A DNA stretch of 64,000 nt from a virus, in the IMG/VR virus record IMGVR_UViG_3300037423_001503, one strand, 5' to 3'. Under the pieces are notes generated by a model. That model did no database searches. It had not been told where the DNA came from and saw nothing but the letters and a program-made list of their open reading frames with translations. Below, in pieces: positions 1-61,577 of the stretch (the stretch's first letter is position 1; each line of letters begins with the position of its first letter). The position numbers and the translations under genes are program-made.

Positions 1-47
1 ACTCTCGGGTAACAACCGAGCACGTTCTCCGTTTACGCCACAGCGGA
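1..47 (-). tRNA. trnN: tRNA-Asn(GTT), 3' part truncated by window edge
   Basis: Minus strand reads TCCGCTG TGGCGTAAACGGAGAACGTG CTCGG-TTGTTAC-CCGAG; anticodon arm with GTT. Confidence 0.8.
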
Positions 48-52
48 TCGTA

Positions 53-125
53 TTGCAGGCCTAGGATTCGAACCCAGACTTCACGGCTTCAGAGGCCGGC
101 GGGCTGCCAGTTACACCAGCCTGCA
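53..125 (-). tRNA. trnQ: tRNA-Gln(CTG)
   Basis: Acceptor TGCAGGC/GCCTGCA (U1:A72), anticodon loop CTCTGAA, T-loop GGTTCGAATCC; no CCA. Confidence 0.92.
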
Positions 126-131
126 TTAGGA

Positions 132-203
132 ATGCGGGACTCGGGTTCGAACCGAGCCGATGAGCTTCAAAGGCTCACGTGCTGCCAGCTACACCATCCC
201 GCA
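132..203 (-). tRNA. trnQ: tRNA-Gln(TTG)
   Basis: Acceptor TGCGGGA/TCCCGCA, anticodon arm TGAGC-CTTTGAA-GCTCA, T-loop GGTTCGAACCC. Confidence 0.92.
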
Positions 204-218
204 GAGGAAGGAAGAGGA

Positions 219-240
219 ACTCTAGCACACTCTCGTGACA
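219..240 (-). promoter_or_regulatory. Promoter of tRNA cluster 1 (TGTCA-N11-TAGAGT)
   Basis: Same motif precedes the other two tRNA clusters (5742-5763, 11941-11962). Confidence 0.7.
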
Positions 241-243
241 GAC

Positions 244-666
244 GTGGCCGGGCGACTAACCTGCTGCCGCCCGGCCACTGACCGGAGAACCATGACCTAA
301 CCTACTCACCCTCGCCAACTGACCAACGTCGGCAAGCTTGGAGAGCCAGGAGGCGCGCAGGTCAAGCGCATCAACTCCTGGCTCGTTAGAAGCCCTTTCG
401 GGGAGAGGCGAGATTCCACTCGCAACATCACGATCCAGCGTGGGCAGCCTTTCGGCATTAGGAAACCACCTGAATCGCTCCGAGCCCATCGACGGTCTGC
501 CAGGACCAACGCATCGCTGACTCGGAGTGGCTGCTCCTGTCCACCGCTACGACTCCCAGGCTGATGACCCTGTCGTGCAGCTTTTCCCAACGCTTCGATG
601 ACACCTTAGCCCCATGCTGCTAGGGCTTGTTCGGTCACTCTCTGCCGCACTGGCCGGTGCGGCGTT
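244..666 (-). ncRNA. Large ornate structured ncRNA (~420 nt), class unknown
   Basis: No credible ORF; upstream TTGACA...TGCTACAGT promoter (673-703); more than 10 helices, two GAAA tetraloops, long-range helices and possible pseudoknots. Confidence 0.75.
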
Positions 667-699
667 GAAGGAACTGTAGCACACATCACGGGGTACGTG

Positions 700-915
700 T
701 CAAGAAGAAATCTCCGGCCTGCTCTTCTCGGCCAACGTGGGAGCCGAGTCGACCTCTGCTTCCCCACGAAGAAACGCCGTTGCGCCGTAACTCTCGACGC
801 CGTTGTCCCAGCGCACGTAGCACCATCCCTCGTCCGGCTGAAGGTTTCCGGTGTACGGCAGCACAACGCCGCCCCATCCGGTGCTCAGGCTGCGAACGCG
901 CGTCCCAGGCTTCAC
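700..915 (-). CDS. hypothetical protein (small beta-barrel-like)
   Basis: C-terminal part of ORF 700..1233; GTG start overlapping the stop of 912..1115. Confidence 0.45.
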   Translation of the reverse strand: MKPGTRVRSLSTGWGGVVLPYTGNLQPDEGWCYVRWDNGVESYGATAFLRGEAEVDSAPTLAEKSRPEISS

Positions 916-1115
916 GACGACTCCTGTGTCTGGCCCAACGTGTCGATCGGGCGTGCCTCGGCGCGGCGGTCTGCCTGCACCACTTCGATCATCGCCCGGC
1001 AGACCTCGCCGGCCTCCACGATGAGGTCGAGCGCCGTGTACCACAGCGCGCCGTCGAGTTTCTCCATCGCCTGTTCGAGCCGCCACCGAATGTCCGCGAT
1101 GCTCGCGGTCCTCAA
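912..1115 (-). CDS. hypothetical protein
   Basis: ORF with phage-like composition, coupled to the downstream ORF; start uncertain. Confidence 0.45.
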   Translation of the reverse strand: MRTASIADIRWRLEQAMEKLDGALWYTALDLIVEAGEVCRAMIEVVQADRRAEARPIDTLGQTQESS

Positions 1116-1242
1116 TCGGACGGACGCGGCCGTCGCACTGAACGCACGACCACCACTCGGGATCGCCGCGCCACATGAACAGGCCGCGCAACGCGTTCTC
1201 GCACAGACGCCTACTTTGTTCTGAATCTGTCATACCGCAAGC

Positions 1243-2730
1243 ATGGCAGATTTAGACGTTGTCGACAAGGCGGCGGCCTGGTACGCTTCCTCCATGACCA
1301 ACGTACGCGCGGCGGACGCTCTGATGGCGAAGATCTTCGGCGAGGACGCTTGGCGCGTCGGTGGCAGCGTACGCGACGAAGTGCTGGGCCGGACGCCCAA
1401 AGACGGCGACTACGTCGTTCGCTCCCACACGCTCATCGAGATCAAGAACAAGCTGCGCCACGGACTGAACCCTGTCGGGCGTGTCGGCCACGATTTGGCG
1501 ATCACCAAGCTCGAACTCCGCACCGGCCAGCACGCCGGGTGGCGGGTCGGCGCGCCGTGGAATATCGAGATCATGATGCCGCGCGGCGAGCAGAAGGTCG
1601 CGAGCGACGAGGGCAACGAGCGGCACAAGTTCATCATCACGCTCGACCCCGACATGCCTCTGGAGGTCGACGCCCTGCGGCGCGACTTCACCATGAACGC
1701 CCTGTATCGGAACGTCGTCACCGGAGAGATTCACGACCCTCTGGGCGGTGTCGCAGCGATCGAGGACCGCGAGATCACGACGACCCATCCGTCGTCGTTC
1801 CGCGACGACCCTCTGCGTACACTGCGCGCTCTGCGCTTCGTGTCGCAGCTTGGCTTCGATCTCGACGATGACACGTACGGGCAGATGTTCGTGCACGCCA
1901 AGGCCGTCAATGGCGGGCTCACCGACAAGGGCGTCTCTGGGACCGCGTTCGATGAACTCTGCAAGATCCTTATGGGCCGGCATGTCGCGAAGGCGCTGCG
2001 GCTGGCGAGGGACTCGCGAGTTCTGGAGTCGCTGCTGCCGGAGCTTGCCCCCATGCTGGGTCACGATCCGCAGAACTCACACCACGCGTTCTCAACCGAC
2101 GAGCACACGTTCGTCGCGCTCGACGCGGCGGCCGGTTTTGGGCTGCCTCTGCGTGTACGGCTCGCGCTGCTCTTCCACGACGCCGGTAAGCCGCTCGTCG
2201 AATGGGTCGGAAAGGACGGTATGAAGCACTACTTCGAGTCCAAGGATCAGCCAGGATCGATCGATCACCAGGAAGCGTCGGCGGGGTTGTGGCTTGCCGT
2301 CGCGGAGCGCCTGAACGTACCGCGTTCACTGCGGCGCGATGTCGAGACGCTGATCCGCCGCCACATGGTGCCGCTGACGCTGCGCCTGAAGCCGGCGAAG
2401 GTGCGCAAGTGGCGATGCGAGCTTGGCGACGACCTGCTCGCAGATCTGCTGCGGCACCGGCTCTGCGACGTCATGGCCAAGGGCGTCATCGACTACGAGG
2501 CCATGCGTGCCGTCAACCGCATGGAGGGGATTCGCGAGGACGCCGTCCGCGATGGGGTGCCTGTGACGGTGCGCGACCTCCCCGTCTCGGGCGGTGACAT
2601 CGCAGCCATGGGGGTCAGCGGTCCTCGGATCGGTGAGATTCAGCGGCAGCTTCTTCACGAGGCGGTGTCACAGCCATCGAACAACACACGTGAGCGGCTG
2701 TATATGCGCGCACTGAAGCTGGCGGCTTGA
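1243..2730 (+). CDS. cca: CCA-adding enzyme / tRNA nucleotidyltransferase with HD domain
   Basis: VGGSVRD...KDGDY nucleotidyltransferase motif, DALRRDFTMNAL, DDPLRTLRALRF, LLFHDAGKP (HD). Confidence 0.93.
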   Translation: MADLDVVDKAAAWYASSMTNVRAADALMAKIFGEDAWRVGGSVRDEVLGRTPKDGDYVVRSHTLIEIKNKLRHGLNPVGRVGHDLAITKLELRTGQHAGWRVGAPWNIEIMMPRGEQKVASDEGNERHKFIITLDPDMPLEVDALRRDFTMNALYRNVVTGEIHDPLGGVAAIEDREITTTHPSSFRDDPLRTLRALRFVSQLGFDLDDDTYGQMFVHAKAVNGGLTDKGVSGTAFDELCKILMGRHVAKALRLARDSRVLESLLPELAPMLGHDPQNSHHAFSTDEHTFVALDAAAGFGLPLRVRLALLFHDAGKPLVEWVGKDGMKHYFESKDQPGSIDHQEASAGLWLAVAERLNVPRSLRRDVETLIRRHMVPLTLRLKPAKVRKWRCELGDDLLADLLRHRLCDVMAKGVIDYEAMRAVNRMEGIREDAVRDGVPVTVRDLPVSGGDIAAMGVSGPRIGEIQRQLLHEAVSQPSNNTRERLYMRALKLAA

Positions 2731-22457: not shown

Positions 22458-22526
22458 GGTTCTCCTTTCAGGAGTGGAGTAGATGTCGCGAACATTAGCC
22501 GGTCCGCGTCGGCGTGTCAAGTCTTT

Positions 22527-22822
22527 GCTAGCCTCGATAGCCGGGGTTCTGTTCCGCCATCGGCGGCGCTGACCATCTATCTACGCCTTGCGGCGTCCGT
22601 CATCTCTCAACGTGACGGTTCTCTCACCATGACCTCCTCCGGATGTCCTCAGGAGGTCGAACTTGAGATCTCATCCAGGCCTCGGCGAACTGCTGGCTTA
22701 TTAGGCTTTGCTCTCGTGGTCCAAGCGGTCAAAGACCTCCCACCGGCCGATTACGCCGAGTTAGCCTCGACGTGGATGCCCCGAACTTCCTCTACGTCTC
22801 CGCAGCGGCCAGCCCGGCTAGC
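22527..22822 (-). ncRNA. rnpB: RNase P RNA (compact, type A-like catalytic domain)
   Basis: P1 GCTAGCC/GGCTAGC; GAGGAAGTTCGGG and ACAGAACCCCGGCTA forming P4 with bulged U; TAGATAGATGG before P2; P3, P5, P15(GGT), P18(GCAA), P19; own promoter TTGAAC-16-TAGAGT. Confidence 0.88.
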
Positions 22823-23024
22823 CCTGTGACTCTAGCAGATATCTGATCTGGTTCAAGGCTCGCATGGCGTCCACTTCGGGCGCTCCGCCGTCAGGAGAGT
22901 CCGCACCGGCGATTCTCATCAACGACAACACCGCGCAGACGAGCGTCGTGTCCTCGAACTTCAGTAGTTCCTTGGACGGCGCGGCCTCGTAGACCTCATC
23001 GACGGAGAAGCGCGTGAACATCAC
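22818..23024 (-). CDS. hypothetical protein
   Basis: Operonic; its 3' end carries the RNase P RNA promoter. Confidence 0.55.
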   Translation of the reverse strand: MMFTRFSVDEVYEAAPSKELLKFEDTTLVCAVLSLMRIAGADSPDGGAPEVDAMRALNQIRYLLESQG

Positions 23025-60604: not shown

Positions 60605-60979
60605 ATGACTACAACGAAGACTCCCGTCGATCTCTGGGTCGAAGCCCTTGAGAGCGGCGAGTTCCAGCAAACCACCGGCGTCCTCACCAATAAGGACGAC
60701 AAGGACTGCTGTCTCGGCGTGGCCTGCAAGGTCTACCAGCGCGAAGTTGGCGGCCTCACGCTCTCCAACGACGAATACGGATCAGTGCTCTACGATGGCC
60801 AAATCGGCACACTCCCAGCGGCTGTTCGTGACTGGCTCGGACTCGCGTCCGAGGATGGCGAATACGATGATGCCGGCTACTCACAGACCCTGGCCGGCGA
60901 CAACGACGACCGAGGCCACGATCTCCTTGAGATCGCCGCAACCGTCCGCAGCCGTCCGAAGGGGCTCTTCCGTGACTGA
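60605..60979 (+). CDS. conserved phage protein
   Basis: WVEALESG.F.Q..G.L...CCLGVAC...NDD; leaderless after TTGACA-17-GACAAT. Confidence 0.75.
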   Translation: MTTTKTPVDLWVEALESGEFQQTTGVLTNKDDKDCCLGVACKVYQREVGGLTLSNDEYGSVLYDGQIGTLPAAVRDWLGLASEDGEYDDAGYSQTLAGDNDDRGHDLLEIAATVRSRPKGLFRD

Positions 60980-61577
60980 AGCGCTGCTGGACCTGACGGA
61001 GTTCAACTTCGTTCCGTGGCCGAAGATCGCGCGCCTGAATCGCGAGACCATCATCACGGAGAAGATCGATGGCACGAACGCGGCAATCCAGATTCTCGAT
61101 GATGGCCGCGTTGGTGCGCAATCACGGAAGCGCCTCATCACTCCTGAGTCGGACAACTTCGGCTTCGCCCGCTGGGTGATGGAGCACGCAGACGAGCTTC
61201 GTGACGGCCTCGGTCCGGGCGTGCATTTCGGTGAGTGGTGGGGCTCAGGTATCCAGCGCGGATACGGACTCCAGAGCGGTGAGAAGCGCTTCTCGCTCTT
61301 CAACACCTCGCGGTGGAGCGCCGACAACACACCCAATTGCGTCTCGGTCGTCCCGGTGTTGAAGACGCTCGATCGCCTCGACGCCGTTGCTGTCGATGAT
61401 GTCGTTCAGTTCCTGCGCGTCAACGGATCGGTCGCAGCGCCGGGATTCATGAACCCAGAGGGGGTTGTGGCCTTCCACGTCCCGGGCCGCACGTTCTACA
61501 AGGTGCTACTAGAGAACGACAACATCCCCAAGGGAGCGGACTCGAACACCGACTACTCGACCGAGGTGCCGCAGTGA
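60972..61577 (+). CDS. RNA ligase (Rnl2-like adenylation domain)
   Basis: TEKIDGTN motif I, QSR, DNFGFA.W, FGEWWG.GIQ, PEGVV. Confidence 0.88.
   Translation: MTEALLDLTEFNFVPWPKIARLNRETIITEKIDGTNAAIQILDDGRVGAQSRKRLITPESDNFGFARWVMEHADELRDGLGPGVHFGEWWGSGIQRGYGLQSGEKRFSLFNTSRWSADNTPNCVSVVPVLKTLDRLDAVAVDDVVQFLRVNGSVAAPGFMNPEGVVAFHVPGRTFYKVLLENDNIPKGADSNTDYSTEVPQ

Follow-up and report, generated by a model that had tools for sequence, protein, structure and literature searches.

GOLLD and ROOL, both far larger than 270 nt, are structured non-coding RNAs without an assigned function, and phage tRNA genes are frequently found next to them. The manA motif (RF01745), which was described in 2010 as a riboswitch candidate (Weinberg et al., 2010, PMC2864571), is a smaller RNA of ~190 nt that is found in AT-rich marine cyanophage or Photobacterium sequences, where it lies in the 5' UTR of a protein-coding gene, and it is typed as Cis-reg in Rfam. 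According to a preprint (Ren et al., 2026, bioRxiv 10.64898/2026.07.01.735769), manA RNAs form RNA-only closed oligomers or cages through loop-loop contacts in vitro, and an intermolecular kissing loop, L3-L8', builds the pentamer of manA_pho34_A767. Such assembly is reported in this preprint in vitro only, and from manA RNAs shorter than the one described here.

In this study, we analysed a window of 64,000 nucleotides, which is the first 64 kb of a 139.5-kb IMG/VR phage record (99% complete, 62% GC). The phage has genes for an HK97-type capsid, portal, terminase and family A DNA polymerase; its capsid shares only ~26-29% identity with mycobacteriophage capsids, and the DNA runs bearing the locus are soil and rhizosphere metagenomes. 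About 20 tRNA genes are present in the window. An initial annotation, made from the letters alone, had flagged 666-244 on the minus strand as a large structured phage non-coding RNA with its own promoter beside tRNA genes. This was borne out: the flagged stretch is a real, expressed and intricately folded RNA gene of a soil phage. With a probability of about 0.8, positions 666-393 (minus strand) represent a free-standing stable RNA gene of ~270 nt that belongs to the manA family as an enlarged, GC-rich member. The RNA is an uncatalogued enlarged relative of manA and not a new class. The features of the locus and of the related genes are as follows (window positions unless otherwise stated):

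698-703, minus strand: -35 element TTGACA of the promoter of the RNA
673-683, minus strand: extended -10 element TGTGCTACAGT
393-666, minus strand: conserved body of the manA-type RNA, ~267-274 nt, with the 3' end G393 seen in RNA data
644-663, minus strand: P1, the 5' hairpin GCCGCAC-CGGCCA-GUGCGGC, equivalent to manA model positions 1-16
638-642 (GAGAG) and 403-407 (CUCUC), minus strand: closing helix P2 (the 'pseudoknot' helix of manA), double changes in 5/5 pairs
603-637, minus strand: junction GUGACCGAACAA, P3 hairpin and CUAAGGU, aligned to the most conserved nucleotides of manA
616-620, minus strand: L3 loop GCAGC, 5' half of a covarying loop-loop pairing
486-601, minus strand: P4 multi-helix domain, in which the stem UCAUCG/CGAUGG surrounds P4a, P4b, the extra hairpin P4c (541-519) and P4d
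426-482, minus strand: long arm (manA P8 equivalent) with a CC-GAAA-GG tip and an internal loop
444-448, minus strand: GCUGC, 3' side of the long-arm internal loop and partner of L3
408-423, minus strand: P6 hairpin GCGAG-UGGAAU-CUCGC (manA P9 equivalent), aligned to the last manA hairpin
393-402, minus strand: P7 tetraloop hairpin CCC-GAAA-GGG, the 3' cap, with an invariant stem
343-384, minus strand: P8, a long terminator-like hairpin present in 5/5 loci, with covariation
244-341, minus strand: lineage-specific spacer with two hairpins (336-310 and 278-244), outside the conserved RNA
219-229, minus strand: second copy of the promoter motif, TGTGCTAGAGT, which drives the tRNA-Gln array
132-203 and 53-125, minus strand (same strand as the RNA): two tRNA-Gln genes downstream of the manA-type RNA
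1243-2730, plus strand: CCA-adding enzyme
22521-22824, minus strand: RNase P RNA-like gene, ~300 nt, ORF-free, behind the fifth copy of the stable-RNA promoter
60648-61577, plus strand: RNA ligase
107074-108423 of the genome, minus strand: RtcB

The RNA was identified at five loci, and in each of them it lies between the CCA-enzyme gene and tRNA genes. Besides the window, these comprise a sister phage (L002), which was found via its CCA protein and is 87% identical over the region, as well as L323, L320 and L455, which were reached by a CCA-enzyme search of a large protein collection and then through the contigs. The RNA was recognised by alignment in L323 and L320 and by our covariance model R1 (118 bits) in L455; R1 gave 118-294 bits on the window locus and the four homologues. 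Beside the CCA gene of the related phage contigs L321, L322, L447-L450, L453 and L454 the RNA is absent, and the relatives derived from the capsid protein were fragments without it. A blastn search of the region against 50,697 phage records yielded no match, and no cultured phage matches. Apart from L002/L099, nothing beyond chance matches emerged when viral and genome collections were scanned for exact 14-mers and 19-mers. By gapped-motif scanning of viral contigs we recovered mainly canonical cyanophage manA, and the corresponding scan of metagenomes yielded L261 and other manA-like RNAs but nothing closely related.

At the gathering threshold, the Rfam scan of the window returned tRNAs only. 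When window 1-1300 was scanned with permissive filters at E<=10, the sole further match was manA (RF01745), at 398-662 and over model positions 1-192 (full length), with 40.2 bits and an E-value of 1.3e-8 (3.3e-10 per genome); this score is 15 bits short of the Rfam gathering cut-off of 55.2 bits. The match recurs in L002 (35.9 bits) and L323 (34.7 bits). The same model gave no match on L320, which shows the distance of this group from the seed. On the metagenomic contig L261 (1665-1898), R1 gave 27.9 bits with E about 1e-5, and the RNA found there has the AAGGGAGUGACCGAACAAG junction, CUAAGGUG, the closing helix, the 3' hairpin and the tRNA flanks in common with the RNA of the window. It is normal-sized (234 nt), lacks both the insertions and the 3' cap hairpin, and reaches only 15.5 bits with the Rfam manA model. 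The stretch around it (L261:300-2493) is GC-rich and nearly all tRNA array, with the manA-like RNA wedged between two tRNAs. With default filters, R1 did not match canonical cyanophage manA loci, and reciprocity is therefore incomplete.

Comparison with the manA model revealed the same core helix order and topology in two RNAs that are both of phage origin, and the core helices aligned to Rfam are each independently supported by covariation. As in manA, a 5' hairpin (663-644) stands right before the closing helix, which has 5 bp in both (GGGAG/CUCCC in the model) and here too encloses the whole fold. The manA junction GUGAC(U/C)GAA(U/C)AA, followed by P3 and then UAAGGUG, corresponds to GUGACCGAACAA ... 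CUAAGGUG at 637-602, and the homologues carry the junction variants AUGACGGAACAA, CUAAAGUG and CUAACGUG. After the long arm, manA has a 5-bp 3' hairpin with UG...AAUC, which is represented here by UUG-GCGAG-UGGAAU-CUCGC at 426-408. In manA, a six-bp stem surrounds three hairpins: a small one, one with a GNRA tetraloop and one with an ACCA loop. The stem is present in this RNA together with the small and the last hairpin, the latter with a UGGC/UAGC loop instead of ACCA; a hairpin with a 7-nt loop replaces the GNRA hairpin, and one additional hairpin has been inserted.

Further differences concern size and setting. The RNA has ~270 nt compared with ~190 nt for manA, with insertions of 72 nt in the P4 domain and 42 nt in the long arm relative to the model, and unlike manA it carries an added 3' tetraloop hairpin as a cap. 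In contrast to canonical manA, with its AT-rich marine cyanophage or Photobacterium sequences and its 5' UTR position, it occurs in a soil phage of 62% GC with weak actinobacteriophage similarity, and has its own promoter, a terminator-like hairpin and tRNA neighbours. Among 120 canonical manA loci, no more than 11 showed a tRNA at a distance of up to 500 nt, which indicates that tRNA adjacency is no general trait of the family.

The minimum free energy of 666-244 (minus strand) was modestly low compared with shuffled sequences (z = -2.63), so that folding energy alone proves little and covariation is the proof. In the five-sequence model alignment (window, L002, L323, L320 and L455), 95.9% of the cells of the 73 nested pairs are paired, versus 39-44% when the partners are slid by 1-3 columns, and compensatory double changes occur in 36 of the 73 pairs; none of 500 shuffles reached any of these measures. 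RNAalifold, applied to four sequences, recovered the manA architecture unprompted, with 85 pairs of which 27 have compensatory double changes. The covariation is most evident in the closing helix (GAGAG/CUCUC, GGAUA/UAUCC and AGGAC/GUCCU), and double changes were also observed in the P3 hairpin (4/6 pairs), the P4 stem (5/6), the long arm at 482-426 (7/14) and the P6 hairpin (3/5). P1 has 7 bp in all five loci: it is the same in the window, L002, L323 and L320 except for one G-C to G-U change in L323, and in L455 its sequence differs but still pairs, with two pairs changed on both sides. No credible ORF exists on the minus strand of 666-244, reading frames are not conserved among the homologues and the indels are mainly of 1-2 nt. 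It is base pairs and not frames that have been conserved, in agreement with the original description of a densely structured, ORF-free minus-strand RNA.

Several helices had been proposed for the window before any homologue was available, and their fates differ. AGCCCU/GGGGCU, CGAC/GUCG, CGAUUCAG/CUGGAUCG, GCGAG/CUCGC and GAGCCAGGAG/CUCCUGGCUC all covary. Of the two GAAA hairpins, CC-GAAA-GG varies on one side only, and the stem of CCC-GAAA-GGG never varies, its loop being GAAA in two loci and UUCG in three (the CCC-UUCG-GGG form). Other proposals did not survive the comparison. The helix UCCGAGUC/GGCUCGGA falls to 4/8 pairs in homologues and the long-range pairing CGUUGGGA/UUCUAACG to 1/8, and the loop pseudoknots UUGACCU-AGGUCA and UUGGUCA-UGACCGA are, by reading of the alignment, not kept even in L002, and part of their sequence falls within a segment that is missing from both L323 and L320. 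The suggested swap of P1 and the 3' hairpin into an alternative helix also involves a segment that these two loci lack.

The spacer at 341-244 was found only in the window phage and its closest relative (L002:666-761, minus strand), between which both of its hairpins are kept; it is absent from L323 and L320, where the promoter of the tRNA array directly follows the 384-343 hairpin. Therefore, the conserved gene is 666-343, and the length of ~420 nt given in the initial annotation was an overstatement, the conserved RNA being 666-393 plus the hairpin 384-343. Judging from the position of the -10 element, the RNA would start at A666. The second hairpin of the spacer has a 5' strand (GGCCGGGCGGC) with complementarity to the 5' half of P1. 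An identical copy of 240-291 occurs in one metatranscriptome contig, where it is joined to unrelated sequence.

In an unbiased scan of all non-nested column stacks, pairing of the P3 loop (620-616) with the long-arm internal loop (448-444) took the top rank. The combinations GCAGC/GCUGC (three sequences), GCGGC/GCCGC and GGUAC/GUACC keep this contact 100% paired, with double changes in 3/5 pairs; 2 of 500 shuffles reached this level and slid controls were at most 52% paired. This covariation is equally compatible with an intramolecular pseudoknot and with an intermolecular kissing loop. If helices are counted from 5' to 3' to map them onto the numbering of Ren et al. (2026), the covarying pair would, by helix order, be the equivalent of the L3-L8' kissing loop reported in that preprint, the P3 loop being complementary to the long arm in this RNA likewise. 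On the same count, the GNRA hairpin is the sixth helix of the manA model, which fits the L6-P6' GNRA contact mentioned there. Complementarity between L3 and the long arm was also noticed by eye in canonical manA (GGCA/UGCC) and in the L237 type (GUCA/UGAC). A second loop-loop candidate (GUCA/UGGC versus GCUA/UAGC) has a single covarying column and is a lead only. The GGCC palindrome in the P1 loop was considered as a self-kissing site and rejected, as it is not kept in L455.

The promoter had been correctly predicted: both TTGACA (703-698) and TGTGCTACAGT (683-673) are conserved in homologues. The -35 region is invariant as CTTGACAC in the window, L002, L323 and L320, as is the extended -10 element, and L455 has TTGAC and a near-identical -10. 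A scan of consensus promoters and terminators found nothing; the promoter was missed because of its 19-nt spacer (with TACAGT as the -10). The motif T[GC]TGCTA[GC]AGT(TCC) has exactly five copies in the 139.5 kb of the genome (219-229, 673-683, 5742-5752, 11941-11951 and 22829-22839). Each of them is on the minus strand, and they precede this RNA, three tRNA arrays and the RNase P RNA-like gene. Since the motif is confined to sites before stable-RNA genes, it defines a stable-RNA promoter class. An upstream TGTC(A/G)C box accompanies three of the five copies (219, 5742 and 11941); in the promoter of the manA-type RNA, TTGACA at 19 nt stands in its place.

The RNase P RNA-like stretch (22521-22824) has a folding z of -5.86, and the model for bacterial RNase P RNA class A aligns to it over the full length of the model, but with a low score (28.4 bits, E 3.3e-7). 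The stretch includes GAGGAAGUUCGGGGC and ACAGAACCCCGGCUA, which by eye resemble the P4 signatures of RNase P. It is likely a slimmed RNase P RNA encoded by the phage. The phage also has a tRNA supply-and-repair set, consisting of the CCA-adding enzyme, the RNA ligase, RtcB and more than 20 tRNAs. The neighbourhood of tRNA arrays, CCA enzyme, RtcB, RNA ligase and RNase P RNA suggests that the manA-type RNA may have a role in a tRNA and translation-support programme of the phage.

Transcripts were represented in four rhizosphere metatranscriptomes, by contigs on 393-659 (391-632 in one of them). The contigs share the same 18 substitutions and therefore come from a 93%-identical relative, so that the RNA evidence consists of assembled contigs of a relative, without strand, abundance or exact 5' end; missing contig cover over neighbouring genes was not counted as evidence. 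Among the substitutions, those in P4b and P4d keep the pairs (one A-U to G-C), and two in the weak 3-bp P4a break pairs. The 3' limit of the contigs is 393, right after the tetraloop cap, in three runs and 391 in the remaining run, and the 384-343 hairpin is covered only by low-depth contig ends. In one run, the contig is directly bordered by sequencing adapters both at 659 and at its opposite end; therefore, discrete ends exist. In three runs, the 3' end G393 was joined back to 646, 645 or 643, where the P1 hairpin has its base. It is doubtful that these joints reflect a real circle lacking P1. We favour an artefact of reverse transcription, with the enzyme halted by the GC-rich P1 stem and continuing on a different molecule from its GGG-3' end, and the heterogeneity of 1-3 nt at the joints points in this direction. 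If end-joined RNA species do exist, the tRNA repair set could be relevant to them.

With regard to family, we are strongly inclined to regard the RNA as a stand-alone manA-family RNA. The initial annotation had pointed to GOLLD, ROOL or a new class, and the scan against all of Rfam at E<=10 contained manA only and none of GOLLD, ROOL, raiA and OLE. For GOLLD and ROOL only the context fits, namely a large phage RNA beside tRNAs, and neither the region at E<=10 nor the window at the gathering score matched them; the RNA resembles them in neither sequence nor structure and is much smaller, which leaves a negligible chance of membership. An unrelated new class that matches manA by chance or convergence would be easier to reconcile with a score 15 bits under the gathering cut-off, with the missed L320 and with the failure of R1 on canonical manA. 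Such a coincidence is very improbable in view of an E-value of 1e-8 over the full model and of matches at three independent loci, and it would also have to explain the alignment of the manA nucleotides GUGAC-GAA-AA, UAAGGUG and UG...AAUC and the covariation of each aligned helix.

The function of the RNA is a separate question. Its family is typed Cis-reg and was proposed as a riboswitch candidate (PMC2864571), and the RNA is located upstream of tRNA genes on the same strand, which is what might be expected of a cis-acting leader or riboswitch controlling the tRNA-Gln operon. However, the tRNA array has its own promoter motif (219-229), which in L323 and L320 comes right after the 3' hairpin of the RNA and in L455 is separated from it by ~700 nt; the RNA contigs extend no further than G393 in three runs and 391 in the fourth, and no protein-coding gene lies downstream. 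A leader function is accordingly hard to believe. The working model with the best support is a structural RNA, active in trans, whose copies pair with one another: it would act in trans and not as a riboswitch, and, given the covarying L3/long-arm pairing, would most likely form a homo-oligomer, which is the behaviour of canonical manA RNAs in vitro. That it works as a self-assembled multimer in vivo we rate at slightly under even odds. The main rival, to which we give appreciably less weight, is a monomer in which the L3-arm pairing, as an intramolecular pseudoknot, gives shape to a surface where a protein or tRNA-handling enzymes bind; the CCA enzyme, RNase P, RtcB or host tRNA nucleases, for instance, might have the RNA as their decoy or cofactor. 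The covariation fits pairing in cis equally well, the gene adjoins the CCA gene and tRNA arrays in 5/5 loci and shares its promoter type with the tRNAs and the RNase P RNA-like gene, and the closing helix with the 5-bp hairpin is, by reading only, loosely like an acceptor stem plus T arm. On the other hand, no tRNA model or ARAGORN match was obtained on the RNA, which has no CCA end, and in the one solved homologue, as reported in the preprint, the equivalent loops pair between subunits. The multimer reading can be extended in a more speculative and rather unlikely form, in which the P1-trimmed RNA is ligated, possibly by the phage RtcB or RNA ligase, to a circle of ~250 nt, and circles or linear forms, held together by the L3-arm kissing contact, build a multimer or cage of RNA only, to the benefit of tRNA supply and repair. 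If this were true, the covariation of the assembly interface would be the first evidence of natural selection for manA-type cages.

The manA motif has been an orphan riboswitch candidate since 2010, and the present locus extends the family to GC-rich soil phages, in an enlarged form that is missed by Rfam. In this phage, a manA-type RNA has an independent gene that shares its regulation with tRNAs and a phage RNase P RNA, and it is not a gene switch. Its loop-loop contact, apparently equivalent to the interface by which cages are built, is maintained by compensatory evolution, and the RNA can be detected, with defined ends, among RNA from the environment. Thereby, the in vivo role of manA assemblies becomes experimentally approachable, and the finding argues for re-typing the family in databases.
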